This document shows, in pieces, positions 18,596-47,893 of a stretch of DNA of 64,000 nucleotides. Location of the stretch: NCBI GenBank assembly GCA_012515515.1, contig JAAYYE010000011.1:1723-65722 (forward strand), given 5' to 3'. Under the pieces are notes generated by a model. The model was given only the letters and a program-made list of their open reading frames with translations, made no database searches and had not been told where the DNA came from. Each line of letters opens with the position of its first letter. Positions within the stretch are counted from its first letter, which is position 1. A program made the position numbers and the translations under genes. The DNA comes from Minisyncoccota bacterium. GTDB taxonomy: Bacteria; Patescibacteriota; Microgenomatia; UBA1400; PJMF01.

Positions 18596-20368
18596 GTGAA
18601 ACGCAAATTGTTTTACACCACCTTGCTGGTGGTGTTGTTGACCCTCACCATAATGGTGGGGCCAGTTTTAGCTGGCGAAACGTGGTTAAATACTCCAGTA
18701 GTTGGTTCCATTCGATGTGGAGCTGGCTTTGGAGAAAGAAACCCGCTCGGCGGGCAAGACTTCCACAATGCCGTTGATATGGCATGTGGAATGTATCGCG
18801 CACGGGTGCTGGCAGTAGCATCTGGCGAAGTCGTTTGGAACACTTATTGGCCGATAGGCAGTGCGCCAAACGTGGGTCACGGTATTACCGTGATTATCAA
18901 GCATCATGATGGGCTCTATACCTATAGCGCTCATCTGGATGAAGCCGCGGTGAAGGTAGGTCAACAAATCGACCAAGGATCGGTAATTGGCCATGTTGGG
19001 AATACTGGGTATGTTATTAGCACTCCAGGCAATCCCAATTACCATTTACACTTTGCCGTAAGGAATACTGGCCCAGATGATGGTGGTTGTTGGGATGCCA
19101 CTTGTTGGCTTAATCCCGACAATTTTTTGGGAAAAAGTCCGGAAATTGCCAATCCGGATCCAGGCACTCCAAACCCAGAACCCAATAAGTTTAATTTAAT
19201 CACAACAATTGATGAAGTTGTTGCGATTATTAAACACATTCCAAAGTTTAAAGATTGGGATGAAAAATGGGAGGGGATTAAAGGATATATTCCTTATATT
19301 CCCTGGGTCTTGGCCGGGTTAACCTTACTGGTTTTTCTTGGCCTCTTATGGCTAATAAAACCAGTGTTGAACTGGCTCGCGAAAACTCACTGGTGGCGAA
19401 AAAGATATCATAATGTCGAGCTGTTTTGCTTAGCGTTAGGTATCAAGCTCTTTGGCGAAGGTCTCTATTGGGCACAAATGGCCCAATTCGCTTTTGCTGC
19501 CTGGGGCTTTTACTTTTCGGAGCAAATAATTGAAAGGTCTTATCGCCATTTTAATTATGATCCAGATGTTAAAAAAGACGGCCCTGGCAAAAGAGAATGG
19601 CTAAGAAAAATTATTAACATTATGTTCAACATCGCGTTAATAATGTCAATCTTGGCCTATTCATGGGGATTTTTCCTCATGAACTCAGATTTCCAGGAGC
19701 TTGTTGATGTCTGGGGGTGGTTTGATGATCCAGACCAACCAGATCAACCAGACCCACCAAGCCCGCCAGATCCACCAAGCCCGCCAGATCCAACCCCAAA
19801 GCCTCCTAATATAATTATAGGTGGAGGGGTGAAAATCGTCTTTGATTGCAATTTTAATGCAATCAAGGCTGGATTGGGACCAGTGCAGGTAGGCTGCGAC
19901 GCCCATGGTTTGCCAAAGTTTTTGATCACTTGGTGGAATGGTCAAAAGTTTAATTTCCAAATTCCATTGGAAATTTGGATAGCAGCCCTGGAGGCGGGCA
20001 ATACCCCAGAGCAAGTTTTGGGGATTATTGCCATTGCCAGTTCCGAAAGCACCGGGTTTACCAATTACCAAACGGAAAACCCCTATGGTGCCCTAGGCGT
20101 TTGGCAATTTTTGCCTGCCACCTACACTGCCTGGGCGGAACCAGGCTATGAGAATCCTGCATACCGCACCAACATCCCCATTGCTGCAAAGGCAGTTGGG
20201 AACATGATGGAAGGTGGCATGAATGAGATTTATCTCATGGATCACAGCAATTTTGTCTCCTGTTTTATGGGAGGGAACGGTTGCTGGACCTGGAACCAAC
20301 ATTCCGCGCAAGCGGATTATGCCTACCGCATCCTTTTTGCTTTAAAGGTCGCGGCAGGTCTCAAATAA
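18596..20368 (+). CDS. Bifunctional cell-wall hydrolase: N-terminal M23 (LytM) peptidase + C-terminal lytic transglycosylase (SLT)-like domain, with membrane segments and a PD/PS-rich linker
   Basis: GTG start with an AGGAGG RBS, then a signal peptide. M23 motifs FHNAVD (HxxxD) and HLHF (HxH). The SLT-like region SSESTGF ... GALGVWQF has a catalytic Glu-Ser and a GLMQ-like box. Three to four hydrophobic helices lie between the domains. Confidence 0.65.
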   Translation: MKRKLFYTTLLVVLLTLTIMVGPVLAGETWLNTPVVGSIRCGAGFGERNPLGGQDFHNAVDMACGMYRARVLAVASGEVVWNTYWPIGSAPNVGHGITVIIKHHDGLYTYSAHLDEAAVKVGQQIDQGSVIGHVGNTGYVISTPGNPNYHLHFAVRNTGPDDGGCWDATCWLNPDNFLGKSPEIANPDPGTPNPEPNKFNLITTIDEVVAIIKHIPKFKDWDEKWEGIKGYIPYIPWVLAGLTLLVFLGLLWLIKPVLNWLAKTHWWRKRYHNVELFCLALGIKLFGEGLYWAQMAQFAFAAWGFYFSEQIIERSYRHFNYDPDVKKDGPGKREWLRKIINIMFNIALIMSILAYSWGFFLMNSDFQELVDVWGWFDDPDQPDQPDPPSPPDPPSPPDPTPKPPNIIIGGGVKIVFDCNFNAIKAGLGPVQVGCDAHGLPKFLITWWNGQKFNFQIPLEIWIAALEAGNTPEQVLGIIAIASSESTGFTNYQTENPYGALGVWQFLPATYTAWAEPGYENPAYRTNIPIAAKAVGNMMEGGMNEIYLMDHSNFVSCFMGGNGCWTWNQHSAQADYAYRILFALKVAAGLK

Positions 20369-23816: not shown

Positions 23817-25160
23817 TTGCTGTATCTAGCTATGTTAAAAAAGAAATCTAGCTTAATTATTGCGATTGTTTTTTCTTTACTTGTTGGCGTGGGTGGTGGC
23901 TTATTGCTTAGCCACTACCAAGATCGTTTGCCGCTAATTGCTAATTTAATTAAGCAAGACTCAAAGCAAAATGAAGACAATGTTTATTTAGCTTTTTTAC
24001 AGGAGCTTCGCCAAATTATCTTAGAAAATTATTGGGACACCATTAATGAGACACAGTTTGTTAAATTACATGTTTTAGTGCTTGAACAAATAACGGGAAC
24101 AACTTTTGGTGATGCCATAGAAAATTTCACAGATTTAGATCAGCAAATTCTTGAATTACTTAAAGACTATCCCGAAGAATTGAAGCAAGAATTTACTGTG
24201 CAGTTGGCCGATTTAGTTTTAACTAATCTAGAGCCTTTTGGTCGCAGTCGACTTTATTCTCAACAATTAGAAGATGATTTAGCTGAACGGGTCAACAATA
24301 TCGATCCAGAAGCTGATCATTATCAGTCTTTAAATGTAGCTAAAGACGCTACCAGCGAGGAAATTAGTCAGGCTTTTGTAGAGCAAGAAGCTATTTTAGA
24401 AAAAGAGAATACTCCAGAAGCAGCAGCTCAATTAGCAGAAATTCGCCAAGCTTATCAGACCTTAGCCAATGAAGAAAATCGCCAGCGTTATGATGAGGCA
24501 GGGGTTAATCCTAGTATGGAATGGCGTTTGCTTAATTCTGCAGTTTTTTATGTGCATATTAAACAATTTACACCAAACACCGTTCAAGAACTTTTAGAAG
24601 TCAGCCAAAAAGTTGATGATCGAGGAGAAGAGTTGGACTCATTAATTCTAGATTTGCGAGGCAATATTGGTGGAGCTATAGACGGTTTGCCCTACTTTTT
24701 GGGGCCATTTATTGGTCAAAACCAATACGCCTATCAATTTGTTCAACAGGGAAAAATTACCGATTATAAAACTCGTAGCAGCTATTTACCCTCTCTGGCT
24801 CGTTATAAAAAAGTGGCTATCTTAATCGATGAGCAAGTACAATCAACAGCCGAAGTGATGGCCAGTGTACTGAAAAAATACAACGTGGGGGTATTAATTG
24901 GCACTAATACTATGGGTTGGGGCACAGTCGAACGAGTTTTTCCTCTTGAAAAGCAAATTAGCGAGAGTGAGCGCTATTCAGTTTTTTTGGTTCATCATCT
25001 AACTTTGCGTGAAGATGGCGTAATTATTGAGGGCAATGGGGTGGCGCCGGTTATCAACACTCAAGATGTGGCTTGGCAACGGCGTTTAGCTAGTTATTTT
25101 GGTGATTCAGCCATTGTGTCAGCGGTGACAGAGCAATTTGCTTTCCCAGAAGCAAATTAA
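23817..25160 (+). CDS. S41-family (C-terminal processing) peptidase-like protein with N-terminal TM anchor and degenerate J-like segment
   Basis: LDLRGNIGG matches the S41 DLRxNxGG box, and QSTAEVMA looks like the Ser-containing segment. The J-domain-like stretch (DHYQSLNVAKDATSEEISQAF...RQAYQTL) lacks HPD. Confidence 0.5.
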   Translation: MLYLAMLKKKSSLIIAIVFSLLVGVGGGLLLSHYQDRLPLIANLIKQDSKQNEDNVYLAFLQELRQIILENYWDTINETQFVKLHVLVLEQITGTTFGDAIENFTDLDQQILELLKDYPEELKQEFTVQLADLVLTNLEPFGRSRLYSQQLEDDLAERVNNIDPEADHYQSLNVAKDATSEEISQAFVEQEAILEKENTPEAAAQLAEIRQAYQTLANEENRQRYDEAGVNPSMEWRLLNSAVFYVHIKQFTPNTVQELLEVSQKVDDRGEELDSLILDLRGNIGGAIDGLPYFLGPFIGQNQYAYQFVQQGKITDYKTRSSYLPSLARYKKVAILIDEQVQSTAEVMASVLKKYNVGVLIGTNTMGWGTVERVFPLEKQISESERYSVFLVHHLTLREDGVIIEGNGVAPVINTQDVAWQRRLASYFGDSAIVSAVTEQFAFPEAN

Positions 25161-25240: not shown

Positions 25241-26905
25241 TTGTTGAAAAACCTGCCTTTAATGCTCAGGATATTTAATTTACTTTACCAGAGAAAAACA
25301 AAATTCATTTCCCAAGAGGTTTATTTTTGTGAATATGCCGGCAGCGTTTATCTGATTGTTCAAGATAAAGAGACGGGCAAAATCATTAAATCAGCCAAAA
25401 GTAAAGATGGTTTTTTATTTCGTAAGGTGAGAATTAAGGAAGCTGCAGTTAAGCAATACCCCCCCTTTAAAGAAAAAAGACGCAAATTTATTCAAGATCG
25501 CTATGTCGGACATTTAGCTCCATCCAGTGAATTCATTGATAAATCAAAGATCGCTGTGCAAAATGCTTTTAGCACTCCCGATGGCGTCTTGTTGTTTTAT
25601 CATTATCACAATCATCAATCTTTTCAGGTGGGCGTGGCAGGTTTTACCCATGGCAATAATCCGCAGTTAATCTGGCGCCACCACCAGCCAGTTTGGGAAA
25701 TGTATGATCAGATCGCGGATAAAAAAATTGAATTTATAGATTTAATTGAAATTCGGGGTCAGTTAATTGCCTATTGGCTAGTAGAAAATGAAGCGGTTTG
25801 GGCAACTGTTTATCCTAATTATCGCATTACTGAGCAAATTGAAATTGTTAAAGGTTCACAGCTTGAGCGACCCAGTGGCAATCCCCTAATCAGTCCAAAT
25901 CCTAGCCACGATTGGGAAGCTTTTACCACTTTCAACCCCGGTGCCCTCTACGACGCCGGCAAAGTTCACTTGCTTTATCGTGCTCAAGGTTATGACTATG
26001 TGTCTTCGATTGGTTATGCCAGTAGCACTGATGGTGTGCATATTGAGCAGCAATTGCAAAATCCAGTTTTTATTCCCACTCAACCCTTTGAAATTCCGCT
26101 CCAACCAGGCAAAGTCAACATGAATTTTATGTCAGCTGGTTATGGTGGTTGTGAAGATCCGCGCATCACTAAAATTGATGACCGGATTTATATGACTTAT
26201 GTAGCTTTTAATGGTTATTCAGAACCTAGAATTGCCATGAGCTCGATTGCTGTGAAAGATTTTCTAGACCACAATTGGTTGTGGACTCATCCCGTTTTGA
26301 TTTCTCAGCCTGGAGTGGTAACCAAAAGCGCTTGCATTTTACCGGAAAAAATTGATGGTAAATATGTGATTTTTCATCGAGTTTTTCCTGATATTTTAAT
26401 TGATTATCGCGATGATTTAGATTTTAGCGACGGACAATATTTAACTGCGCAAAAGAAAATCAGTCCTCGTTCGGCATTATGGTGGGATAGTCGCAAAATT
26501 GGGGTGGGCGCTCCACCGCTAAAAACTCGAGATGGTTGGTTATTAATTTATCAATCAATCGATGACAAAGCTGGCTACCCCTATAAAGTTGGAGCCATGT
26601 TGCTCGACTTAGCAGATCCAAGCAAAGTTTTGCATCGTTCTCGTCAGCCAATTCTTGAACCACAAGAGTGGTATGACAATGATGGTTTTAAAGCAGGAGT
26701 AGTTTATCCCTGTGGAGCAGTAATTATTGATAATACCCTGTTTGTTTATTATGGTGGAGCTGATTCACGAGTCTGTGTGGCGACTGCCAACTTAGCAGAG
26801 TTTTTAGATCAGCTCAAAAAAGAAGGCGATGCTCGAGTTGAACCGACTGTAATTGCCAAACTAGATCAAGAAAATTTAGCCAAAAAAGGGTTTTTTCATC
26901 GGTAA
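25241..26905 (+). CDS. GH130-family-like glycosidase/phosphorylase (PH1107-related)
   Basis: GCEDPRITKIDDRIYMTYVAFNG motif. Paralogous to the next gene. The track start is TTG at 25241, and the first ATG is at 25262. Confidence 0.6.
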   Translation: MLKNLPLMLRIFNLLYQRKTKFISQEVYFCEYAGSVYLIVQDKETGKIIKSAKSKDGFLFRKVRIKEAAVKQYPPFKEKRRKFIQDRYVGHLAPSSEFIDKSKIAVQNAFSTPDGVLLFYHYHNHQSFQVGVAGFTHGNNPQLIWRHHQPVWEMYDQIADKKIEFIDLIEIRGQLIAYWLVENEAVWATVYPNYRITEQIEIVKGSQLERPSGNPLISPNPSHDWEAFTTFNPGALYDAGKVHLLYRAQGYDYVSSIGYASSTDGVHIEQQLQNPVFIPTQPFEIPLQPGKVNMNFMSAGYGGCEDPRITKIDDRIYMTYVAFNGYSEPRIAMSSIAVKDFLDHNWLWTHPVLISQPGVVTKSACILPEKIDGKYVIFHRVFPDILIDYRDDLDFSDGQYLTAQKKISPRSALWWDSRKIGVGAPPLKTRDGWLLIYQSIDDKAGYPYKVGAMLLDLADPSKVLHRSRQPILEPQEWYDNDGFKAGVVYPCGAVIIDNTLFVYYGGADSRVCVATANLAEFLDQLKKEGDARVEPTVIAKLDQENLAKKGFFHR

Positions 26906-26969
26906 AAATTATTCAATTATGCGCATTAAAATAATTGCGCACATCAAAAGAGCTTTCTAAAAGGTAATT

Positions 26970-28922
26970 ATGAAGCAAGATCAGCAACAAATACAATTTA
27001 AAAGACATCCAAAAAATCCACTTTTTTCTCCTCTTAGCAATAAGCTCACAAATCAAGAATGGCAAGCCAAAGCGGCTTTTAATCCTAGCCTAATTAAAGA
27101 AACAGCAGATAGTTATCACATGTTATATCGGGCCGTGTCTTTAGAAAAAGAGCATGCTGGTCAGTGGATGAATTTATCTAGCATTGCTTATGCAGAAAGT
27201 CGCAACGGGCTAGATTTTGAGCACTCACGCCAGTTAATTGTTCCAGAATATGATTGGGAAAAATTTGGTTGTGAGGATCCGCGAGTGACCTTTATAAATG
27301 GTCAGTATTATATTTTTTACACGGCGCTTGCCGATTATCCACACAGCGCCGATGGCATTCGCGTGGCAGTGGCTATTAGTGATGATTTAAGAACTATTAA
27401 AGAGAAACATTTGGTGACGCATTTTAACGCCAAAGCGATGGCCCTTTTTCCAGAAAAAATTAATGGTCAATATGTAGCAGTTTTAACACCCAACACCGAT
27501 CAGCCACCATCAATGATTGCTGTAGCTAGATTTGACGAGCTAGAAGATATTTGGTCTCCAGGATATTGGGAAAAATGGTATCAATGTGTGGGGCGCCACC
27601 AAATTAATTTAGAGCGCATCGACAGCGATCAAATTGAAGTGGGCGCAGTCCCAATCAAAACGAAGGATGGCTGGTTATTAATATATGCTCATATTCAAAA
27701 TTATCCCACCGAAAACAAAAGAATATTCGGGATTGAGGCTGCTCTAGTAGATTTAGCAGATCCACGAACAATAATTGCTAGAACCAAAGGGCCACTGCTC
27801 ACACCAGCAGCCGACTATGAAGGCGACGGCATGGTACCCAATGTTATTTTTCCCTCATCAGCTTTAATTGAAAATGATAAATTGCGTTTATATTATGGAG
27901 CCGCCGATACCCATTGTGCTGCTGCAGATATTTCTTTAGCAGAGCTGATTAAAGACATGAAAGCCAATCCCTTTAAAGAAACTTATCACTTAGTTAAATA
28001 TCGACGCAATCCAATTTTAAGCCCGCGTAGTGAGAACTTTTGGGAAGCAAATTCAGTTTTTAACCCAGCAGCAGTGCATGTTGGAGATAAATATTACTTG
28101 GTGTATCGTGCTCAATCTCCAGATAATACCTCAACATTGGGTTTAGCAGAAAGCGACGATGGTTTTAATTTTAAACGCTATCACGAGCCAATTTATGTGC
28201 CACGCAAAGCCTTTGAACAAAAAGCTGAACCTGGCAGATTATCTGGCTGTGAAGATCCGCGCATTACTCGCATGGGCGATGAATTTCTGATGTTTTATAC
28301 TGCCTATGATGGTATTAATCCACCCAGAGTGGCACTGAGCTCGATTGCTGTCAGTGATTTTGTTAATCATAATTGGCAGTGGTCAGAGCCGATAGTTATT
28401 TCTTCACCAGAAATCGATAATAAAAATAGTTGTTTGTTCCCTGAAAAAGTCCGCGGTCGCTATGTCATTTTACATCGTATGGCTGGCAAAGAAATTGCCA
28501 TCGATTACCTTGACGATCTCAGTCAACTGCAAAACGAAGGCGTTTGGTTGGAAAAAGAACAATCAATTTCTCCGATTACAGAACACTGGGACGGTCTTAA
28601 AATTGGTATTGCTGGCCCCCCTTTACTAGTGGATCAAGGCTGGCTGTTGCTTTATCACGGTGTGTCAGATATCGATCATCATTACCGAGTTGGTTTTATG
28701 CTTTTGGATAGAGATGAGCCTGGAAAAGTTTTATATCGCTCACCTTATCCAATTTTACGACCCACCGAACCCTTTGAGCGCATTGGTGATGTGGACAATG
28801 TTGTTTTCCCCTGTGGAGCAGTGATTGTTGATGGCACCTTGTTTGTTTATTACGGTGGAGCAGACAAAGTAGTCTGTGTGGCCACAGCCGATCTCAGCGA
28901 ATTATTAGCCCAAATTAAATAA
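26970..28922 (+). CDS. Tandem two-domain GH130-family-like glycosidase/phosphorylase
   Basis: Two copies of the family box (FGCEDPRVTFINGQYYIFYTAL and SGCEDPRITRMGDEFLMFYTAYDG). The C-terminal 45 aa nearly match the C-terminus of the previous gene. Confidence 0.65.
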   Translation: MKQDQQQIQFKRHPKNPLFSPLSNKLTNQEWQAKAAFNPSLIKETADSYHMLYRAVSLEKEHAGQWMNLSSIAYAESRNGLDFEHSRQLIVPEYDWEKFGCEDPRVTFINGQYYIFYTALADYPHSADGIRVAVAISDDLRTIKEKHLVTHFNAKAMALFPEKINGQYVAVLTPNTDQPPSMIAVARFDELEDIWSPGYWEKWYQCVGRHQINLERIDSDQIEVGAVPIKTKDGWLLIYAHIQNYPTENKRIFGIEAALVDLADPRTIIARTKGPLLTPAADYEGDGMVPNVIFPSSALIENDKLRLYYGAADTHCAAADISLAELIKDMKANPFKETYHLVKYRRNPILSPRSENFWEANSVFNPAAVHVGDKYYLVYRAQSPDNTSTLGLAESDDGFNFKRYHEPIYVPRKAFEQKAEPGRLSGCEDPRITRMGDEFLMFYTAYDGINPPRVALSSIAVSDFVNHNWQWSEPIVISSPEIDNKNSCLFPEKVRGRYVILHRMAGKEIAIDYLDDLSQLQNEGVWLEKEQSISPITEHWDGLKIGIAGPPLLVDQGWLLLYHGVSDIDHHYRVGFMLLDRDEPGKVLYRSPYPILRPTEPFERIGDVDNVVFPCGAVIVDGTLFVYYGGADKVVCVATADLSELLAQIK

Positions 28923-29055: not shown

Positions 29056-29132
29056 AAGGGCAAACACTCGTTGATTATGTGTTAATTAATTGGTCTGTTG
29101 CAACACGACGAGTAGTACAAAAGGTATCTATT

Positions 29133-32100
29133 ATGAAAAAACGCACCCGCGCTCTCTTTCTTAAAGTAATTACTTTTTTCCAAATTTTCTCTCTCATTTT
29201 TCAACCCCTAAGCTTATTATCTTTGTTAGTACTTGATCCTGTCGTGGCAAGAGCTCAAGATGAAGTTGTACTTGAGGAGCAGATTTCTGTAGAGCCAATG
29301 GCAGAAGCCAATGTTCAAGCAGAATCAGTAGTGGATGAAGATGCCGAAGAGATCATTGAGCATGAAGACGCAGATGATGATCTAATAGATATTGAAGAAG
29401 ATCTTGAAGAAGAATCTGAAGAAGAGTCTGAAGAAATTCCAGAAGAAATTCTGCCAGTGGCAGATGAAGAAGAGCCTAGCGAGGATGATGCTAGTGCTGA
29501 AGCAGATCTAGAATTATCAATCCCAGAACCAACTTTAACTTTAATTCCTACCCCGATGCCAACAGAGTCAGTAGCTGAAAGTAAGGAAGACAATTCTTTA
29601 ATGCTGGGTGATTTTATGTTTAGTTTAAATTCCGAAGGAGCAGGAGAATACACTATTTCTGGTACTAGTGGTATTTGGACATCAACAAGTAATAATAACA
29701 TCGTTAGTGGTAGAAATACTAACTATATAAAATGGCCAACATCTGGTAATCAAAGTGGTCTTCGCTTTACAGGGGTTAGTAGCTTTAACTTTAACGAAGA
29801 GCAGACTTTTTCTCTAGGTAAGTTGGAGCATTTTAACTATCCTGTAAGTAGTGCAATAACGAAAGCTACTCTTAGTGTGGATATAAATATATCTAATCCT
29901 AACTTAGGTACAAAAACTTTCGAATTTGAAATGCTTATTGATGAAACTGATAATGTTGCTGGGAGATGTCCTAGTTGGCATACGTATGGCCACCCCGCCT
30001 GTGATGACAAAATTACTTTTCCCACATCATACGCTAAACAAACCTTTGACATGGGTGGGAAAAAATATACATTAGAGATAACAGGATTTATTAATTCTTC
30101 TGGAACTAAGGTTAATGAATTTATTACAGAAGAGAGCAAAACAAATGAGGCTACATTAGTTGGTAAGCTAACATCTGTAGATTCCGAGGTAGCTATTTGT
30201 CATGCAACTGGAGATGAATCTAATCCTTATCAAAAAATTACTGGTGTTGATGCAAATGCTACTGTAGGTGATCATGATAGTGACAATGGAGATGCTTGGT
30301 ATCCTGGGATTACTGGAACTTGGGGCGATATTATTCCTAGATTTTTGTATTTTGATGGAAGCGGTAATATTCAAGCATATGAAGGAAAAAATAATGATGA
30401 ATACGGTCTTTCCCTTTTAGCAAATAATTGTGAACTTCCTAGTGGAGAAATTGAAGTAAAAAAGGTTACTGTTCCAGAGGGAAACAACACATCTTTTGGT
30501 GTTACTGGAACTGGTGTAGCTTCTATTTCTAACTCTCCAGTTACATTTATAGATGGAAATACAGGAACTATTTCAGCGACAGAGTCAAAAACATTCAAAG
30601 TATATCCAGGTAAATATTCATTTACTGAAACTCTACCCAGTGGTTGGATACAAACAGGTAATACTTGTAATAATATTGAAATTGAAAATGATGATGAAAA
30701 GTCTTGTACTATTACAAATACTCTTCAGCACGGAACATTAACACTCGTTAAAAAAGTTGTTAACAATAATGGGGGACAATCATTAGCCTCTGCTTGGACA
30801 TTATCTGCTATTGGAAGTGAGGAAAACTTAAGTGGTAAAGGAACTCAAGATCAAAATGAAAATAAAGCCGTACTGGAACTAAAAAATGTTAAAGCAGGAA
30901 CATATACTCTCTCAGAAGCAGGTCCTGCTGGATATGGTGCAAGTGATTGGAGTTGTAAAGATGATGATACAGGAAATGATGTAGCTCACCCAGTTACATT
31001 AGCAGGAGGCCAAAAAGTCACCTGTGCTATTACTAATGATGATATTCAACCTAAGCTTACTGTGACAAAAATAGTTGAAGGTGGAAATAAAAATGTAAGT
31101 GATTTTAAACTCTATGTCGGAAACACTGAAGTAACTAGTGGTCAGCAAACAGGGTTTAATGCAGGAACATATACTGTTAGAGAAGATACCGATTTAGATT
31201 ATAAATCTGTCATAGGAGATGATTGTGCTTCAAATGGCAGTATTACTCTAGCCCCAGGAGATGTTAAAGAGTGTACTATTACTAATACTAGAAAAACTGG
31301 ACAAGTCTCCTTTACTAAAAATGTCACATACGGTGATGCACAACCAAGCAATTGGTCTTTTGCTGTGTATAAAGAAGGTGTGTTGGTGGGTACGTATGAT
31401 CACAATAGTTCAGTGGCATTAGCTACAGGAGTATATACAGTACAAGAAGTGGGTTCCACTTCTTCTTTACCTTACTATTTAGATAGTATAGGAGGGACAG
31501 CATGTAGTGGAACTGTTTTATCTGGAGTTGCACAACTTACAGTAACAGAAAGTGGAGGTACCTGTATATTTGGAAACTCAAAGAAACCTCAGCTTACTGT
31601 TATCAAAGTAGTAGAGCCTACGGATAGTACAGATATCTTTGGTTTTACAATAACTGAAAGTGATGAAGATATAAGTGAATTTACTTTAGGTCATAGCGAA
31701 CCAAAAACTGTAGATGTTATGCCTGGTTCATACACTATTACAGAAACAGGAGCTACAGGATACAGTACTAAAATAGAGTGTACTGATGATCTAATTCCTA
31801 CTTTTGCTACTGCACGCACTATTTCATTAAATGCAACAGAAAATAAATTCTGTAAATTTACTAATACAAAATTAGGTTCTATCTCTGGAACTAAATGGAA
31901 CGACATAAATGGTGATGGAATTAAAGATGAGGGAGAAGAAGCTGTAGAAGGAGTACAGATTTGTATAGATGCAAATGCAAATAGTGTTTGTAATGAGGGT
32001 GAGGTTTCTGTAGCTACAGATGCTTCTGGAAGCTATACTTTTTCTAACCTCTTACCTGGTTCATATACCATTATTGAAACACTTAATTCGGGTTGGGAGC

Positions 32101-35100
32101 AGACATATCCAGCAGGAAGCCATACGGTTGTACTCTCGGCTGGAGAGGTTGAGACTGATCATAATTTTGGCAACTGGAAACTTAAACCAGGAATTAATGT
32201 GGTTAAAAAATCAACCACAGAATTTGTTACGGATGCCGGTCAAGTAGTGCCATATACTTTTACTGTTACTAACATTGGAAATCAGATTTTAACCGGAATT
32301 ACTGTTTTAGATCTAAACTGTGATGTTGCACCTGCTTATCAGTCAGGTGATACAAACGAAGATAGCGAGCTTAATTTAAACGAAACTTGGATTTACACCT
32401 GTAGTCACACTGTCACTCAAGATGAAGTTGATGTTGGTGGCGAGCTTCATAACAAGGTCACTGTCGATTCTAGCGAATCAGAACCTGAAGAAGATGAGAA
32501 AGATATTCCGATCACACAAAGTCCTAAACTATCTATAGAAAAGACTGGAGTATTTGATGATGGAACTGATGGCATTACAAATCCAGGAGATTTAATTACC
32601 TACACCTTTAAGGTAACGAATACGGGTAATCTTACTTTAACGGGAATAACTGTTACAGACCCATTACTAGGAGGTGCTATTACATCTTGTTCAGCTACCG
32701 TTCTAGCAGTAGGTGCAGATATGACCTGTACAGCAACTTATGCAATTACCCAAGCAGATATTGATGCGGGTAAAGTAGATAACACAGCAATTGCAGATTC
32801 AGAAGAATCAGAAGAAGCAAAAGATGATGAAACAGTTGAATTAGAACAAAGTCCTGAATTATCTATAGTTAAAACAGCAAATCCTATTACATACAACAAG
32901 GTTGGAGATAAGATATCTTACAGTTATGTTGTAACCAACACAGGTAATGTTACCTTAAAAGGCCCATTTACTGTTACAGATGACAAAACAGATACGAGCT
33001 GTCCAGAACCAGAAAGTTTAGCACCAAACGGATCTATTACTTGTGGTGCAACTTATACTATCACTCAGGCGGATCTTGAGAGCCAATCGGTTACCAATAT
33101 TGCATTTGCTTCCAATGATAAAGTAACTTCTGATAAAGATAGTGCAACAGTAACTTCTGTAGCAGGAAAAATAATAATTGAAAAACAAACTCTTCCTGAT
33201 GGATCTGCAGAATCATTTGAATTTAATCCAACTTGGAGTGAAAGTAACTTTAATCTAACAGATGGAGAGAAAAACGAAAGCGGATGGTTAGCTGCAGGCA
33301 CATATTCAGTTTCAGAAATTGTCCCAAGTGGTTGGCAATTAACTGATATTGAGTGTGATAGTGAAAACACTACATCTACTGTAGGTTACAATACAAACTC
33401 TGCTAATATAACTCTTGGAAATAGTGATATTGTAACATGTGTATTCACTAACTCTAAAAAAGGTACTCTTACAGTAATTAAGGATGATAATATCGATAGT
33501 GGTCAAGAATTTACATTCTACGCATTACAAGGAGGAGCACAGAGAGAAACCCGATTCACCCTGTCTGATGATGGAAGTAATAATGCTGAAAAGAATAGCA
33601 AAACATTTGTAGGATTAGTATCTATTCCATACAAAGTAAGAGAAGTTGTTCCAACAGGATGGAGTGCATCTTTGGTAAGCTGTACATCTAACAATCCAAT
33701 GCCTAACCCAGATAACAGCTTGGGAACCGGAGAAATGAGTATTTCATTAAGACCAGGTGAAAATATTATCTGTACCTTCATAAATACTCGAGACACAGGT
33801 TCTATAAAAGTAAATAAATATACAGATATAAATGGAGATGGTGATTGGAATGATAGAAACGAAAAAGATAATTCTAATGCAAATAAATTAGGATTTAGAT
33901 GGAGTATAGATGGTGGAGACGAGAATAAAATGGGAGATAAAGTATCTGGTATACATACAGGAACATATTCAATAACGGAATCAATGCCCGATGGCTATCA
34001 CTTCGTTTCTTGGTACTATACTAAGGAAAATGGCAAATCCTGTACTAATCCAAATGGAACAACTTTTCCTTCTTCACTTGATGTTACAAAGGGAAACACA
34101 ACTGAAATCACAATGTGTAATGTAAGAGATACGGGTACGGTTACCATTATTAAAAATTCTGTCAATGAAAGTGGACAAGACTTTTACTTTAAGACAGATT
34201 TCCCTTCTGGAGGATTTTTCTTAGAAGATGATGGGCGTGATAATCATGGAACTCCCAATCAAAGAACATTTACCCTGCCAACGGGTGAGTATTATGTCGA
34301 TGAAAGAGAATATACTGGTTGGCAATTAACTGATCTGGATTGTGAGGGAGATGCTGAGTCTGTAGTTGATTTGGCTACGGGACGAGTAGATATCAACTTA
34401 CAGGCCAATGAAGAGATTACCTGTACCTTTACCAATACCCAATTAGCAAAAATTTGGGGATATAAATATAATGATAAAAATGGCAACGGCTCTTGGAATT
34501 TGGGTGAATGGGGTTTGGGTAACTGGAGAATCTTTTTAGATGAGAATGGTAATGGGATATATAACAAGCCAGAAGCCAGTACCCTCACCAGCAATTTCCC
34601 ACTGTTACTCACTTTGGGATATTACCAATTCGACAATCTATTACCAGGAGATTATACAGTCTGTGAAACACAAAAAGCTGGCTGGAGCAATACAAGTCCG
34701 CTTTGTAGAACCATCACTTTAAAGCCTGGTGAAATTGCTAATGTGAATTTCTTCAATATTCAGTATGGGCAGTTAAGCGTGCACAAGTATTATGACCAGA
34801 ATGGTGATGGACTTTTAGACGAGGGCGAGCAAGGATTAGAAGGCTGGGAGATGAATGTCTACAAAGGTAATAATTGTTGGGGCGAGCCAATGGCTAGTGA
34901 TCTTACTAATGATCATGGTTATGCAGTCTTTGAAAACTTAGTGCCTGGACAATACTCTGTTAAGGAAACTCTAGAGGATGGTTGGGAAACAACCAGCGAT
35001 GTTTGTACTACTATAAAAGTGGACCCAGCAAGCCATAAAACTGTTGATATTGGCAATCGATTGATCGATAGTCAATTAATGATCGAAAAAACCAACGATG

Positions 35101-36692
35101 CTTGGCCAAACGATCAAGAAATTGGTGACGAGGTGACTTATACCATTAAACTTATGGCAACTGATGGCCCGGTTTATGATGTGTCACTCTTTGATTTACC
35201 ACCGCATGCTTTTAGCTATGTGGCAGGTAGTTATACGGCTGACTCTTCGATTGCTGGTGATTTAAGTCTCTCTGAACCCAATTATGCTTCGCCAGGAGAA
35301 TGGCAGCTAGGTGATTTAGCCAAAGACGAAATTGTCACCGTGAGCTATAAAGCGATTATTGGTGATGAGGCTGACGCGGGTATTTACCCAGATGCAGCTT
35401 GGGCTACTGGCACTAGCGCTGAAGCTCAATATTTTGGGAAAAAAGCAGATTTATTAGCTTTGTCTGATCCAGACTTTAAGGCTGATAATGGTGAAGTGGC
35501 TTTCCTAGGTGAGCAGGGTCATTATGGCGAAGAGCATTTTGTTGGCACTCGGGTGGCAGTGGTCACTGATGAGACGCCAAGCGCTAAATACAAGGTTGAG
35601 AAGATTAAAGAAAAAGAGGGCGCAGTGCTCGGTGCGATTTTACCAGCAACTGGTGCCAACTTCTGGCTCAGCCTCTTAGCCATAATAAGTATTTTAACTG
35701 GTACGGGCTTACTCTTAGTGCCCAATCGTAAGCGTCGCCAAGGAAAGGTGCTAATGATGCTTTTAATGCTAGGTTTAGGCTTATTAATGGCCAAACCAGT
35801 TCAAGCGCTAACCTCAGTTAGACTGGCTCAGCCATATAATAGCAGTGCTGAGCTTGATCAAGATGCGATCACTAATCAAGACGAATTCCGCATTGATTTT
35901 GTGATCCTCAATACTGATGGTGCAAGTCTTACTGCTCAATGTCAGCAACAAGAAGATGGTGGAGCTTGGACTAATATTGACACTGTTTATACGGCGAAAG
36001 CTGGCGGCAATTCTGGTTATTGTGAGGCTAAAGATTTAGCTAACAGCAGCCAATATGCTTTCCGAGTCTTAACTAGCGACGGAGAAGAAAGTCAAAGCGT
36101 CAAGGTTGGTCTAGAAACCGATCGTCCTAAAAAACCAGTCAGTTACGAGAAGCATGAAATCAGTTCTTGTAAATATGAAATTAAATTTAAAACGGCTGAT
36201 GATGGACGAACCAGCAAGGTTGAGGTCTATCGTAGCGATGACAATGTTTCATTTACTGCTAAAGCCAGTAGTCGCATTAAAACGATTACGATTGGCTCAG
36301 ATGAAAAACACAGTTTTGAAACAACTCGACCTGATTGCGACAAAGATTATTATTATGCTATTCGCGCTTTTGACCAGTATGGCAACGCCTCAGACTTAGT
36401 TGGTGATCGGGAAGTGAAGACGGTCATTGTTGAAGGCACTGAAGCAGAAGAAGCAGGCGCTCTTGCAGTCACTGAAACCGTCGTTTTAGACGGAGATGTA
36501 GGTGATGCTGGCGTCCTCAGCGAAGGTTTACTTGGCGAAGAAGTGGCAGAAGACGAAAAAGGGACAATTTTAGGCATAGATACAGAAAGTCTAGTGTCCT
36601 TTTTAACCAAAGTTGCTTTACCAATTTTAGTCTTTGTTACCATCGCGATTTTAGTTTATCGCTTGGTCATTGCGAAGCGTAATGAAAAATAA
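29133..36692 (+). CDS. Giant (~2,500 aa) surface adhesin: signal peptide, acidic region, multiple DUF11 and SdrD-B/CnaB-type repeats, internal LPATG sorting signal, then FN3-like module with C-terminal TM anchor (possibly two genes, see findings)
   Basis: MKKRTRALFLKV... signal peptide. Acidic DE-rich block. DUF11 repeats (VTNTGN.TLTGITVTD). CnaB/SdrD-B-like repeats (GTKWNDINGDGIKDEGE...). LPATG at 35640-35654 followed by a hydrophobic stretch and NRKRR. The frame then continues into a second signal-peptide-like segment and FN3-like domains. Confidence 0.7.
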   Translation: MKKRTRALFLKVITFFQIFSLIFQPLSLLSLLVLDPVVARAQDEVVLEEQISVEPMAEANVQAESVVDEDAEEIIEHEDADDDLIDIEEDLEEESEEESEEIPEEILPVADEEEPSEDDASAEADLELSIPEPTLTLIPTPMPTESVAESKEDNSLMLGDFMFSLNSEGAGEYTISGTSGIWTSTSNNNIVSGRNTNYIKWPTSGNQSGLRFTGVSSFNFNEEQTFSLGKLEHFNYPVSSAITKATLSVDINISNPNLGTKTFEFEMLIDETDNVAGRCPSWHTYGHPACDDKITFPTSYAKQTFDMGGKKYTLEITGFINSSGTKVNEFITEESKTNEATLVGKLTSVDSEVAICHATGDESNPYQKITGVDANATVGDHDSDNGDAWYPGITGTWGDIIPRFLYFDGSGNIQAYEGKNNDEYGLSLLANNCELPSGEIEVKKVTVPEGNNTSFGVTGTGVASISNSPVTFIDGNTGTISATESKTFKVYPGKYSFTETLPSGWIQTGNTCNNIEIENDDEKSCTITNTLQHGTLTLVKKVVNNNGGQSLASAWTLSAIGSEENLSGKGTQDQNENKAVLELKNVKAGTYTLSEAGPAGYGASDWSCKDDDTGNDVAHPVTLAGGQKVTCAITNDDIQPKLTVTKIVEGGNKNVSDFKLYVGNTEVTSGQQTGFNAGTYTVREDTDLDYKSVIGDDCASNGSITLAPGDVKECTITNTRKTGQVSFTKNVTYGDAQPSNWSFAVYKEGVLVGTYDHNSSVALATGVYTVQEVGSTSSLPYYLDSIGGTACSGTVLSGVAQLTVTESGGTCIFGNSKKPQLTVIKVVEPTDSTDIFGFTITESDEDISEFTLGHSEPKTVDVMPGSYTITETGATGYSTKIECTDDLIPTFATARTISLNATENKFCKFTNTKLGSISGTKWNDINGDGIKDEGEEAVEGVQICIDANANSVCNEGEVSVATDASGSYTFSNLLPGSYTIIETLNSGWEQTYPAGSHTVVLSAGEVETDHNFGNWKLKPGINVVKKSTTEFVTDAGQVVPYTFTVTNIGNQILTGITVLDLNCDVAPAYQSGDTNEDSELNLNETWIYTCSHTVTQDEVDVGGELHNKVTVDSSESEPEEDEKDIPITQSPKLSIEKTGVFDDGTDGITNPGDLITYTFKVTNTGNLTLTGITVTDPLLGGAITSCSATVLAVGADMTCTATYAITQADIDAGKVDNTAIADSEESEEAKDDETVELEQSPELSIVKTANPITYNKVGDKISYSYVVTNTGNVTLKGPFTVTDDKTDTSCPEPESLAPNGSITCGATYTITQADLESQSVTNIAFASNDKVTSDKDSATVTSVAGKIIIEKQTLPDGSAESFEFNPTWSESNFNLTDGEKNESGWLAAGTYSVSEIVPSGWQLTDIECDSENTTSTVGYNTNSANITLGNSDIVTCVFTNSKKGTLTVIKDDNIDSGQEFTFYALQGGAQRETRFTLSDDGSNNAEKNSKTFVGLVSIPYKVREVVPTGWSASLVSCTSNNPMPNPDNSLGTGEMSISLRPGENIICTFINTRDTGSIKVNKYTDINGDGDWNDRNEKDNSNANKLGFRWSIDGGDENKMGDKVSGIHTGTYSITESMPDGYHFVSWYYTKENGKSCTNPNGTTFPSSLDVTKGNTTEITMCNVRDTGTVTIIKNSVNESGQDFYFKTDFPSGGFFLEDDGRDNHGTPNQRTFTLPTGEYYVDEREYTGWQLTDLDCEGDAESVVDLATGRVDINLQANEEITCTFTNTQLAKIWGYKYNDKNGNGSWNLGEWGLGNWRIFLDENGNGIYNKPEASTLTSNFPLLLTLGYYQFDNLLPGDYTVCETQKAGWSNTSPLCRTITLKPGEIANVNFFNIQYGQLSVHKYYDQNGDGLLDEGEQGLEGWEMNVYKGNNCWGEPMASDLTNDHGYAVFENLVPGQYSVKETLEDGWETTSDVCTTIKVDPASHKTVDIGNRLIDSQLMIEKTNDAWPNDQEIGDEVTYTIKLMATDGPVYDVSLFDLPPHAFSYVAGSYTADSSIAGDLSLSEPNYASPGEWQLGDLAKDEIVTVSYKAIIGDEADAGIYPDAAWATGTSAEAQYFGKKADLLALSDPDFKADNGEVAFLGEQGHYGEEHFVGTRVAVVTDETPSAKYKVEKIKEKEGAVLGAILPATGANFWLSLLAIISILTGTGLLLVPNRKRRQGKVLMMLLMLGLGLLMAKPVQALTSVRLAQPYNSSAELDQDAITNQDEFRIDFVILNTDGASLTAQCQQQEDGGAWTNIDTVYTAKAGGNSGYCEAKDLANSSQYAFRVLTSDGEESQSVKVGLETDRPKKPVSYEKHEISSCKYEIKFKTADDGRTSKVEVYRSDDNVSFTAKASSRIKTITIGSDEKHSFETTRPDCDKDYYYAIRAFDQYGNASDLVGDREVKTVIVEGTEAEEAGALAVTETVVLDGDVGDAGVLSEGLLGEEVAEDEKGTILGIDTESLVSFLTKVALPILVFVTIAILVYRLVIAKRNEK
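35640..35654 (+). other. Internal LPATG sortase recognition motif (LPxTG + hydrophobic + RKRR tail) not followed by a stop codon
   Basis: The sequence ILPATGANFWLSLLAIISILTGTGLLLVPNRKRRQGK then continues in frame. An AAGGAAAGG RBS lies 5 nt before the in-frame ATG at 35754. Confidence 0.6.
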
Positions 36693-37308
36693 AAAAGCTT
36701 GCCCTAAGCTAAGGCTGGTTTTGGCCAGCCTGTTGATTATCGCTGGGTTAACGATTTTACTGGTGGCTTATGGGCCAATTTTAGTGGCTGAACTGCGCTT
36801 TGTTTTTCGCCAGCGTAATTCTCAATTAATTGACAATGGTCAAGCTAGCTCTCAATTTACCGAAATCAAGCCTGTCGACGAGGACTTTAGCATCGTAATT
36901 CCCAAGATTAATGTGAATGCCGCCATCGTCCAAGATGTTGATCCTTATAGTTCTTTTGAGTATCAGCGGCAGTTGGCTAAGGGTGTGGCTCATGCGGCAG
37001 GCACCGCTTTGCCCGATGAGGAGCGCAGTATGTTTTTGTTTGCTCATGCTAGTGGCGATATTTTGATGGCGCGCCGCTATAATTCAGTGTTTTATTTGTT
37101 GAACAAATTGGAGGCGGGCGACCAGCTGCTGATTTACTATCGCGGCGCGCCCTATCACTACCAAGTTATCTCTAGTAAAGAGGTTGCTCCTGATGCTATT
37201 GCTTATTTAGAAAACAATGATGAAAGTGATCTAATTTTAATGACTTGTACGCCTCCTGGAACTACTTGGCGTCGCTTATTGGTTTTTGCTGATAAAATTT
37301 CTCCCTAG
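36682..37308 (+). CDS. Sortase-family transpeptidase (class E-like)
   Basis: One N-terminal TM helix. The catalytic segment LILMTCTP matches the sortase TLxTC motif. The ATG at 36682 overlaps the 3' end of the adhesin ORF by 11 nt. Confidence 0.6.
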   Translation: MKNKKACPKLRLVLASLLIIAGLTILLVAYGPILVAELRFVFRQRNSQLIDNGQASSQFTEIKPVDEDFSIVIPKINVNAAIVQDVDPYSSFEYQRQLAKGVAHAAGTALPDEERSMFLFAHASGDILMARRYNSVFYLLNKLEAGDQLLIYYRGAPYHYQVISSKEVAPDAIAYLENNDESDLILMTCTPPGTTWRRLLVFADKISP

Positions 37309-45904: not shown

Positions 45905-46015
45905 TACTTGCAGGGGCTATTCATTTGCAGTGCTTATCAGCAGCGGGGGCTTAATCTACAGCTATTCACCCGCAGGGATTTCACTTGTGGGGACTATTCA
46001 CCGGCAGGGGTTTCG
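45905..46015. repeat. Cluster of three degenerate ~18-bp direct repeats (G/A)CTATTCA(C)..GCAGGG
   Basis: The three copies are GGGGCTATTCATTTGCAG, AGCTATTCACCCGCAGGG and GGGACTATTCACCGGCAGGGG. They straddle the stop codon of the LCP gene. Confidence 0.4.
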
Positions 46016-47133
46016 CTGGCAAGGTTTTGTTGAATAAAACTTTGCAGCTCGCTCCAGTTGTTATGACCAACTTTAGGTATGAGCACAGAACCATTATTAC
46101 TCTTAGAACTCGTTAAAACGTTTTCAGTGCTAATATTAATATTTTTGATAGCAAAATCATTGGCGTTGATTAATAATGGAGCAAAATATTGAAGAATAGT
46201 TAAATCAAAATCGCTAGCCACATGTTGACCCACTTGTTTAAAAAAACGAGGAATGTTGCTTAAGGCATCTAAATCAAATAATTTTTTTCTAATACCCGTT
46301 AGTACCTCAACTTGACGACGACTGCGATCAAAATCACTTGAGCTGTGGCGAGAGCGAACATATTTTAAGGCATCTCCTCCCTCCATTTTTTGTGTTCCAG
46401 CCGAGAAATAAATTTTTTCATATCTACAAGCAAATTGTTTTTCTAATTCAAAACCACTTAAAGTTTCCGTTAAATGGGCTATTTCTTCATTACTATGCCC
46501 ACAAGGATCGAGTTGCCTGCCTTCAATCGGATACCATTGGTCAGCAAAGTCTGTTTTGACATCAACTTCTATACTGCCAAGCTCCTGACCAACCAAACGC
46601 TGAAAACCCACAAAATCTATGGCAATAAAATATTTGATGTTTAAATTGCTGACCGAAGACAATAAATTTTTAGTGACTTGGCCGGCATTTATTATCGGTT
46701 CTGAACCACTCATGTGTGAGCTAAATACCGTATTAATTTTACGATAACTGCCATCGTTTAGTTTTAATTCTAAATCTCTGGGTATGGAGATAAAGGCAAT
46801 AATTTTATTTTCAAAATCTATATGAGCAATTTGAATGAGGTCGGCTAACATGCCACCTTGATGACCAGCACCTCCATAGCCAATTAATAAAACATTCAGC
46901 TCTTTTTGATCGTCACTGGCAATTTGACTCAGATCATCATTTAACTGAGGTATTTGCTGATTTTCCTGAGCGACATCAGCTTTTTGCTCTTTTTGTAATT
47001 GACGAAAAGTAACAGCTGTTGAAACCCCAACACTCATGAGCAATAAAAATAAAAAAGTAAAAAATAATCTCTTCTGTTTTTTACTTAATCCTCGATATGA
47101 ATTTAATAATTTTTGTTTTAGTTTCTGTAGCAT
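45994..47133 (-). CDS. LytR-CpsA-Psr (LCP) family cell-envelope protein
   Basis: N-terminal TM helix, then the LCP core (LNVLLIGYGGAGHQGG ... ISIPRDLELKL ... KINTVF). The start is taken at the second Met (MLQKLKQK), because the first (47175) would overlap the divergent gene. Confidence 0.7.
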   Translation of the reverse strand: MLQKLKQKLLNSYRGLSKKQKRLFFTFLFLLLMSVGVSTAVTFRQLQKEQKADVAQENQQIPQLNDDLSQIASDDQKELNVLLIGYGGAGHQGGMLADLIQIAHIDFENKIIAFISIPRDLELKLNDGSYRKINTVFSSHMSGSEPIINAGQVTKNLLSSVSNLNIKYFIAIDFVGFQRLVGQELGSIEVDVKTDFADQWYPIEGRQLDPCGHSNEEIAHLTETLSGFELEKQFACRYEKIYFSAGTQKMEGGDALKYVRSRHSSSDFDRSRRQVEVLTGIRKKLFDLDALSNIPRFFKQVGQHVASDFDLTILQYFAPLLINANDFAIKNINISTENVLTSSKSNNGSVLIPKVGHNNWSELQSFIQQNLASETPAGE

Positions 47134-47173
47134 TTGCGTGATTTTAGTATATCTTAAATGATATAATAAACAC

Positions 47174-47893
47174 ATGTCAAAAAATTCTTTTTTTACTTTG
47201 CAAAATAATCAATTTCCTTATAATAAATTAAGATTTCCTGGTCAAGGTAGTGATGAAAAAATCCTATATGTGACGCGAGAGCATGTCATATTTTTAGTCT
47301 ATAAAATCCTCTTCATCTTATTAATTGCTGTAACGATTATTGTTGCTAGTGTGATGTTAAATAGAAGTTTTGGTCAAGTTTTTCATAATCAGCTTTTATC
47401 CAGCATCTTGGCGATTGGATTATTAGTCTTTTTTGTATTTATTTTATTGGGCGTGTGGTGGGTGTTTACCTTGTGGAAAAAATCAGTGGCCATTGTCACT
47501 AACAAGCGTCTAATTAAATTTATTTACACAACCCCAGTCAATCGTTACAACATGAGCTTACCCCTAGAAATGATCGTTGACACTAGTTATCACAACAAGG
47601 GTTTTCTTAGTTCATATTTAAATATTGGCAGCATTACTGCCCGATCTAGTGCCAGCAGTTCTGGAGTGGCAACAGATGATGTTACGCGAGTTAATAAAAA
47701 ATATTTTTATTTAGAAAATATTCAATATGCTGAAGATTTACAGCAATATTTAAATAAGCTTATCAATGCTTTACACAAAGATTCCTCAGCTTTAAATGAT
47801 TTGCGTCCATTTTTACCCAATTTAAAAGGGGAGGAGAGAGAAGAATTTTTAAGAGAAAATTATCCTCAATACGCAAAAAACGCAAAAAAATAG
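47174..47893 (+). CDS. Membrane protein with bacterial PH (bPH_2/DUF304-like) domain
   Basis: Two TM helices, followed by IVTNKRLIKFIY...LPLEMIVDTSYHNKGFL, which resembles YdbS/YdbT-type bPH domains. Confidence 0.4.
   Translation: MSKNSFFTLQNNQFPYNKLRFPGQGSDEKILYVTREHVIFLVYKILFILLIAVTIIVASVMLNRSFGQVFHNQLLSSILAIGLLVFFVFILLGVWWVFTLWKKSVAIVTNKRLIKFIYTTPVNRYNMSLPLEMIVDTSYHNKGFLSSYLNIGSITARSSASSSGVATDDVTRVNKKYFYLENIQYAEDLQQYLNKLINALHKDSSALNDLRPFLPNLKGEEREEFLRENYPQYAKNAKK

Follow-up and report, generated by a model that had tools for sequence, protein, structure and literature searches.

A giant adhesin with an internal sortase sorting signal, fused to a tandem-FN3 membrane module in a Microgenomatia bacterium

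Can a sortase sorting signal lie inside a protein instead of ending it? Canonical LPXTG signals end their proteins by definition, and we know of no experimental case of a sortase processing a signal that is not C-terminal. The question is raised by a locus in a 64,000-nucleotide stretch of contig JAAYYE010000011.1 from an uncultured, probably ultra-small Minisyncoccota bacterium (hereafter the window, whose coordinates are used throughout). There, the open reading frame (ORF) listing and its translation give one ORF of 2519 aa (29133 to 36692, + strand) that encodes an adhesin, an internal sorting signal, an internal signal peptide, a tandem-FN3 module, and a membrane anchor, and whose end overlaps a sortase gene. 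An earlier note on this DNA, made from the letters alone, had offered three readings: two genes joined artificially by a sequencing error or a recent stop loss, a real fusion, or a stop codon polymorphism acting as a switch. We conclude that this is probably a genuine, anciently maintained gene fusion that is translated as one polypeptide and processed to two products.

Two predicted export signals around an internal LPATG

All features of the cassette are on the + strand. The fused ORF starts with the ATG at 29133, with an alternative in-frame GTG upstream at 29079, and stops at 36690-36692; the JGI gene call (record Ga0123334_1000001, sample 3300009671) also starts at 29133, and the calls are identical. 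This record is a 692-kb metagenome contig that contains the window. The LPATG motif (35640-35654; residues 2170 to 2174 of 2519) lies 350 residues from the C-terminus. Its sorting signal scores 19.3 bits against TIGR01167, for which the curated cut-off is 15.9. It is followed by a 24-aa hydrophobic segment (TM1, 35655-35726), predicted to run from out to in, and by a basic loop, RKRRQGK (35727-35747, net charge +5), predicted to be cytoplasmic. The pentapeptide, hydrophobic stretch, and charged tail of an LPXTG signal are all present; the position at the extreme C-terminus is not, and the frame runs on for 317 codons past RKRR.

The codon after RKRR is CAA (35739-35741), one transition away from TAA. 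It is followed by GGA AAG GTG CTA ATG ATG and then by a hydrophobic run ending in AKPVQA. This run is part of a second, internal signal-peptide-like segment, VLMMLLMLGLGLLMAKPVQA (TM2, 35748-35807), predicted to run from in to out and carrying a V-Q-A (-3,-1) signal-peptidase site; free-standing homologues of the module have a cleavable signal peptide at their N-terminus, and the segment aligns with it. Read off the sequence, 35727-35807 has the pattern of a Sec type I signal peptide (RKRRQGK, then VLMMLLMLGLGLLMAKP, then V-Q-A), located not at an N-terminus but internally, at residue 2199 of 2519. RKRRQGK has two roles, closing the sorting signal as its charged tail and opening this next signal peptide as its n-region. 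A Shine-Dalgarno (SD)-like sequence, AAGGAAAGG (35740-35748), begins within the loop and stands 5 nt ahead of an in-frame ATG at 35754. The earlier note had listed LPATG, the hydrophobic stretch, NRKRR, the missing stop, QGK, the CAA codon, the second signal-peptide-like sequence, and the SD sequence with its ATG; each was located where it had been placed.

An AlphaFold2 (AF2) model of the last 480 residues of the protein agrees with this layout. LPATG ends a low-confidence, non-domain stretch and is followed directly by two helices (residues 135-155 and 164-180 of the segment model) joined by an 8-residue loop; the truncated DUF11 part of the model is poor (pLDDT below 50), and the model was used for the junction and the module only. 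The earlier note had named as damaging to its claim an ORF uninterrupted in all relatives, together with an LPATG inside a predicted folded domain. The close relatives indeed have uninterrupted ORFs (see below), but the LPATG lies outside any folded domain.

Downstream, the module comprises two FN3-like beta-sandwich domains (35811-36371; about 35811-36113 and 36138-36371), a disordered acidic linker (36411-36581; residues 220-276, AF2 pLDDT below 50), and a C-terminal membrane helix with a basic tail (36582-36689, ending in ILVYRLVIAKRNEK; AF2 helix 277-311, also evident in the alignment). The module sequence YYYAIRAFDQYGNAS precedes this helix, which is the C-terminal transmembrane (TM) anchor that had been claimed; no LPXTG stands next to it in the translation or the alignment. 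The domain assignment draws on AF2, Foldseek, and conservation in 246 sequences. In a model built from a 13-sequence alignment both domains have pLDDT of 80-97, and Foldseek against the PDB matches the module to tandem FN3 pairs (E 1.5e-7 to 1e-6). These results back the description "FN3-like" of the earlier note, for which the Pfam fn3 model gives no match. The Foldseek matches are generic FN3 pairs and provide no functional lead. Each domain has a conserved Cys pair, and the module contains the motifs IKFKTADD and YYYAIRAFDxxGNxS. We also identified a full-length match (E = 6e-104) to the A1 profile, an uncurated alignment of the adhesin-coupled tandem-FN3 membrane protein family. Specifically, the window module has the four conserved Cys, IKFKTADD, YYYAIRAF, the C-terminal helix, and the position between LPXTG and sortase that characterize this family.

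The cassette ends with a gene for a membrane-anchored sortase of 208 aa (36682-37308). Its ATG at 36682 lies within the fused ORF, giving the 11-nt overlap described by the earlier note, and the protein matches PF04203 at 73.4 bits (cut-off 26.6). It has a hydrophobic N-terminus, LRLVLASLLIIAGLTILLVAY, and the motif LILMTCTP, a catalytic Cys motif of the TLxTC type. Overall, the order is adhesin with LPXTG, FN3 module, and sortase. A scan of the whole 64-kb window found this sortase to be the only one and LPATG to be the only LPXTG-type signal.

The open frame in relatives

Addressing first whether the frame is truly open, we located species-level relatives by searching with the sortase. CAA and an uninterrupted frame are present in five independent assemblies from five sequencing runs (sortase 88-93% identical to that of the window); over all independent species-level sequences, the tally is six of six. 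The relatives differ from the window at nearby synonymous positions and are therefore independent sequences. The earlier note had proposed comparing orthologs for a stop at 35739-35741; none was found, and the relatives are open at this position. The fused state extends to every more distant member of the clade, down to about 46% identity (P0001/L003, P0160-P0162, L007, L002, and L073/74). The closest homologues of the module begin with LPATG or with the sorting-signal helix, and others stand alone as proteins of about 320 aa, each having an N-terminal signal peptide of its own.

L002 was counted for the junction only, its upstream region being unreliable. In that record the start of the last DUF11 domain of the adhesin (...LYIEKLNDAWPNDQ...) is on the opposite strand (1-360, - strand), beside the LPATG-proximal region. 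A fold-back artefact at the Logan contig's end is the probable cause; the alternative is a genuine inversion.

The substitution pattern across the junction was compared between the window and L003, which is 79% identical. Over 56 junction codons, synonymous differences are saturated (pS = 0.76) and nonsynonymous differences are few (pN = 0.10). The loop and second hydrophobic segment have a pN of 0.078, versus 0.129 in the module. Judged by these values, the junction is under purifying selection as coding sequence. A metagenome scan for the exact junction string with either CAA or TAA gave no match, not even to the source contig, which the scanned collection evidently does not contain in searchable form, and a protein-based metagenome scan recovered just two fused loci, 54% identical.

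An assembly or sequencing error, or a recent change of TAA to CAA, would be suggested by the single transition that separates the two codons, by the SD-like sequence and ATG still standing at the window junction, and by the distant loci L004 and L005, which have an in-frame TAA with an ATG 0-3 nt on. This reading is contradicted by CAA in all six species-level sequences, by the fused state of every clade member down to about 46% identity, and by synonymous sites that are saturated relative to L003 while no stop has appeared. In addition, fused forms occur in 38 independent metagenome-assembled genomes from many studies. We consider an error or recent stop loss extremely improbable.

The same comparison bears on the idea that a CAA/stop polymorphism at 35739-35741 switches a population between the fused and the two-gene state. 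Both states do exist within the family, and one base change could interconvert the in-frame forms. However, no TAA, TAG, or TGA occurs at this position in the six species-level or the approximately 12 clade-level sequences, and the state is fixed by lineage, differing between lineages and not within them. Most separate forms are out of frame with overlapping stop and start codons, and a point mutation cannot interconvert these with the fused form. A switch of this kind therefore seems exceedingly unlikely.

The cassette family and its junctions

A profile scan with one genome per species identified 67 loci, and 68 junctions, including that of the window, are readable. The two genes are fused in frame at 38 of these junctions and are separate, either abutting or overlapping, at the other 30. 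An LPXTG signal lies immediately upstream of the module in all 68. Wherever there is room for it, the sortase gene is directly downstream, in 60 of 66 loci by a distance rule, and the remaining six overlap further. Separate junctions have three geometries: an in-frame TAA with an ATG 0-3 nt on, or either of the two other frames with an overlap. On a larger scale, an exhaustive HMMER search of 1.84 billion cluster representatives recovered 995 family members at E <= 1e-3, with 527 of them reaching E <= 1e-30. Among 159 family proteins examined, 90 are long (up to 2789 aa) and end in the module, and 88 of these 90 carry [LM]PxTG plus a hydrophobic stretch 250-460 residues from the end (LPATG in 46, LPSTG in 21, and LPGTG in 13). 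The second reading of the earlier note, a real fusion, is supported by these counts and is far more general than that note envisaged. That note had also called the layout atypical, which is correct relative to textbook Gram-positive bacteria but not within its own lineage, where the fused form is the commonest.

Where locus titles are informative, they name Daviesbacteria, Gottesmanbacteria, Roizmanbacteria, Shapirobacteria, Collierbacteria, and Levybacteria, and also Pacebacteria, Chisholmbacteria, WWE3, and other Patescibacteria; most loci are labelled as Microgenomates or as other members of the Candidate Phyla Radiation (CPR). Some cassette records carry "Pseudomonadales" or "Gammaproteobacteria" in their titles (L006, L007, and many "TPA_asm" loci), one with isolate HK-STAS-PATE-15, and the sortase of L007 is named by NCBI as "Pseudomonadales bacterium".

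A neighbor-joining (NJ) tree of the module implies at least five switches between fused and separate states; the tree is rough and midpoint-rooted, and it does not give the direction, fusion or fission. A Fitch reconstruction on this tree yields a fused root, and its direction was not relied on. Across the 38 fused junctions, TM1 has a median length of 22 aa, and the loop has 3-35 residues (median 6.5) and a net charge of at least +2. All 38 have Ala at -1 and V, A, L, I, or T at -3, located 17-25 aa past the loop, with the first beta-strand of the module a few residues further on, in a site search that was permissive and run without shuffled controls.

The junctions also bear on whether internal initiation at the SD and ATG (35740-35756) supplies most of the functional FN3 protein, with read-through from a genuinely fused frame as a tolerated by-product. 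The SD-like sequence and its ATG are kept in the species-level relatives, and an ATG is found near the loop at 23 of the 38 fused junctions, often in a signal-peptide context such as "MAKK" or "MKK". On the other hand, there is no stop, so every ribosome that reaches LPATG continues into the module, and the codons for Q-G-K by themselves spell out the SD-like string. No ATG, GTG, or TTG occurs near the loop at 11 of the 38 fused junctions (no ATG at 15), and the nearest distinct relatives of the window (L003, L007, L002, and L073) have no usable internal start before the hydrophobic core. Where no possible start lies near the junction, the module can be made only as part of the fusion. Overall, we think it unlikely that internal initiation is the main source of the FN3 protein.

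Conservation of the signal is relevant to a different alternative, in which the internal LPATG is vestigial and uncleaved, a three-pass membrane protein displays both adhesin and FN3 module, and the sortase serves other substrates. The strict C-terminal position of canonical signals, and the lack, to our knowledge, of any experimentally characterized sortase that processes another kind, would favor this. Yet [LM]PxTG is kept in 88 of the 90 long fusions, the sortase gene is always adjacent or overlapping, the 64-kb window has no other sorting signal, and the signal exceeds the TIGR01167 cut-off. A vestigial LPATG is in our judgment very unlikely.

Within the module, several short motifs were noted. 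The motif A-I-P-V-[TSGA]-[GN] (IPVTN, IPVSG, IPVTG, and similar) occurs in 115 of 145 representatives (relatives P0004-P0159, loci L004-L072), about 40 aa past the YYYAIRAF strand and about 81 aa from the C-terminus. It resembles a sortase motif, although about 55 aa of disordered linker lie between it and the membrane helix, and it could be a second sortase site or a pseudo-substrate; in the clade of the window it is degenerate (GALAVTE, about 36459-36479). The linker between the two domains (36138-36160 in the window, module residues 125-133) reads P-x-x-P-x-x-Y-x-K, with P125 conserved in 100%, P128 in 96%, Y131 in 92%, and K133 in 93% of 246 sequences. The pattern loosely recalls the YPK motif of pilins, in which the lysine serves as the acceptor for the pilus sortase. 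Copies of VLG/ILG recur in the disordered linker (GTILGIDTE, 36560-36580), suggesting that the tail of the module may derive from a degenerate sorting signal. Two other candidate acceptors fared less well. K146 of IKFKTADD was weakened by a column conservation below 85%, versus 93% for K133 in the same 246 sequences. A conserved Gly/Ala nucleophile at the mature N-terminus of the module was unsupported, as the predicted +1 residue varies (L, V, F, A, G, I, M, E, S, Q, D, N).

The adhesin begins with an N-terminal signal peptide (29133-29255, MKKRTRALFLKV), which has a basic n-region, a hydrophobic core, and an A-R-A site; the cleavage site, between VARA and QDE, was placed by eye. The ectodomain (29256-35639) has an acidic N-terminal region followed by a stalk of isopeptide-type and prealbumin-like domains, identified with Pfam above curated cut-offs: SpaA_2 (about 30729-31031), SdrD_B (31887-32117), three copies of DUF7507/CLIPPER_2 (best copy 32520-32816), SpaA_4 (34140-34442), SpaA (34821-35051), and DUF11/CLIPPER (35076-35411). 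SpaA_3 was also matched above its cut-off in the upstream 2200 aa. The acidic N-terminus, DUF11, and CnaB/SdrD-B repeats read by the earlier note are confirmed. CLIPPER domains are described as intramolecular isopeptide domains (bioRxiv 10.1101/2025.04.25.650565). Directly before LPXTG, nearly all adhesins of the family carry the motif G-x-V-L-G-(A/E)-S-T (GEVLGASTxLPATG; 35610-35639 in the window).

It is plausible that the adhesin is a host-attachment factor. Microgenomates-type CPR bacteria are thought to live attached to other cells, which makes the cassette a prime candidate for an attachment apparatus. Some relatives have additional genes around the cassette, namely a second sortase gene upstream of the adhesin, and a CAP-domain protein with an 84-87-aa ORF downstream of the cassette sortase (L004 465-1061, L004 11012-12262, and L005 11571-12670); neither kind is present at the window locus.

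Several neighboring genes of the window may relate to the cell envelope. A LytR-CpsA-Psr (LCP) family protein (45994-47175, - strand) suggests a wall of the Gram-positive type to which glycopolymers are attached, in keeping with sortase anchoring. A 590-aa protein (18596-20368, + strand) has an M23 peptidase domain (68 bits) and a weak phage-tail-lysozyme-like region. Located 9 kb upstream of the adhesin, it is possibly a cell-wall-degrading enzyme, which would fit life as an epibiont or predator. Immediately upstream of the adhesin are two neighboring genes of the GH130 family (mannoside phosphorylase-like; 25241-28922, + strand; precomputed Pfam). A 447-aa protein (23817-25160, + strand) combines DnaJ (J) and S41 (tail-specific) peptidase domains, both above Pfam cut-offs, in an unusual pairing.

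Proposed processing and known systems

How might one polypeptide give rise to two products? We predict that the N-terminal signal peptide exports the roughly 2100-aa isopeptide-domain adhesin, that the helix of the LPATG sorting signal then halts transfer (out to in), and that the RKRRQGK loop remains cytoplasmic. The next hydrophobic segment would act as an internal signal peptide and restart export, now of the tandem-FN3 module (in to out), which the last helix would anchor in the membrane. Such a hairpin topology would fit the positive-inside rule and standard Sec logic without conflict. The co-encoded sortase may cut between LPAT and G and pass the adhesin to an acceptor, most likely a peptidoglycan precursor, and signal peptidase may cut after VQA. 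The predicted products are the same as in the two-gene relatives, a wall-linked adhesin and a membrane-anchored tandem-FN3 protein, with a membrane hairpin of roughly 52 aa discarded.

Because the sorting signal and the signal peptide would together form a topologically seamless hairpin, the presence or absence of a stop between them would be nearly neutral, potentially explaining why the state has switched repeatedly in evolution. The coupling itself is invariable, whether by fusion, by abutting TAA and ATG, or by overlap, suggesting that the adhesin and the FN3 module are needed together, at near 1:1, and at the same membrane site as the sortase. Given this strict coupling and the adjoining sortase gene, the FN3 module may be a functional partner of the adhesin-sortase pair.

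Several points weigh against a processed, anciently maintained fusion. Cleavage by sortase at an internal site, the signal-peptidase cut of the internal signal, and the topology all derive from sequence rules, and the (-3,-1) search was a permissive one. The conserved SD and ATG at 35754 suggest that part of the FN3 module could be made independently, and the rough NJ tree gives no direction in which the fusion arose or was lost. The sortase is below the cut-offs of all NCBIfam class models (A-F), scoring 64.5 bits against 160 for class C, 49.1 against 165 for class D, and 25.9 against 160 for class E. The C-terminal 312 aa have no relative in Pfam, NCBIfam, or PDB sequences. Finally, the "Pseudomonadales" and "Gammaproteobacteria" titles are carried by records closest to the window; these are probably mislabels.

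The choice of acceptor leads to a variant, which we regard as distinctly unlikely, in which the sortase instead, or also, joins the adhesin, by its LPAT end, to the FN3 module of the same polypeptide. The acceptor could conceivably be K133, the 93%-conserved lysine of the P-x-x-Y-x-K linker, by chemistry like that of the pilin motif, or alternatively the new N-terminus left by signal peptidase. The hairpin would then be excised in a sortase-driven form of "protein splicing", giving a two-subunit fiber held by the helix of the module. Under such a scheme the fusion would guarantee donor and acceptor at 1:1 at one translocon, and the IPV[TS][GN] motif of most relatives might provide another sortase site through which the assembly is later transferred to the wall.

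If the adhesin and module are indeed processed to two separate products, as we favor, the consequences extend beyond this locus. A large family with an internal sorting signal and a second exported domain would extend the rule that such signals are C-terminal, and would exemplify a natural bacterial envelope polyprotein resolved by a transpeptidase and a signal peptidase. The coexistence of fused and split forms offers a ready evolutionary experiment on why both proteins must be made together. For genome annotation, a stop that is missing after an LPXTG signal should not be "corrected".

In the literature, a sortase family is reported to be near-ubiquitous in Microgenomates, with substrates and partners not described (Méheust et al. 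2019, PMC6744442). We found no description of internal LPXTG signals or of a CPR sortase cassette in full-text searches whose coverage leaves out most subscription journals, and the internal-signal layout is apparently previously undescribed. The cassette is a variation on the known sortase-substrate system and not a wholly separate kind of system. With the canonical LPXTG signal (TIGR01167; sortase A substrates such as protein A) it shares LPATG, a hydrophobic segment of ~20 residues, a basic tail, and an adjoining sortase gene. The difference is that here the signal is 350 residues from the C-terminus and that what follows it in frame is another export signal and then a folded ectodomain bearing a membrane anchor of its own.

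The cassette also resembles SpaA-type pilus clusters, which comprise a tip adhesin, a small basal Ig-fold pilin, and a class C sortase. Both are compact and combine a dedicated sortase with an adhesin of SpaA/CnaB-like and isopeptide (CLIPPER) domains and with a small protein of two beta-sandwich domains and a flexible tail; the best, though sub-threshold, resemblance of the cassette sortase is to class C. However, the cassette lacks a major pilin, its small protein has an FN3 and not a CnaB fold, and this protein has neither an LPXTG by its helix nor a recognized pilin motif. A pilin with its own LPXTG, a motif lysine, and a class C sortase, the marks of a SpaA-type pilus, were not found together here, the sortase being below the class C cut-off. 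The adhesin and small protein are fused or translationally coupled in the cassette, which is not so in known pilus loci.

Other small membrane proteins are genetically linked to sortases and are presumably needed for their function. These include SafA of Actinobacteria, a tiny transmembrane sortase-associated protein with an FPW motif (PMC9282373), and the SipA/LepA-type pilus chaperones, of which SipA is signal-peptidase-like (PMC4049620). The module is similar to SafA and SipA in this linkage but not in sequence or fold, as it is a tandem FN3 ectodomain with a C-terminal anchor.

A parallel to the proposed processing comes from viruses. The flavivirus prM-E-NS1 and alphavirus E2-6K-E1 polyproteins are cut by signal peptidase at internal signals behind stop-transfer anchors. 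The logic would be the same here, in that an ectodomain is followed by a stop-transfer helix, this by a short loop in the cytoplasm, and the loop by an internal signal peptide whose A-x-A site precedes the next ectodomain. The cassette differs in being bacterial and in sharing no sequence relationship with these polyproteins, and one of its two cuts would be a sortase transpeptidation.

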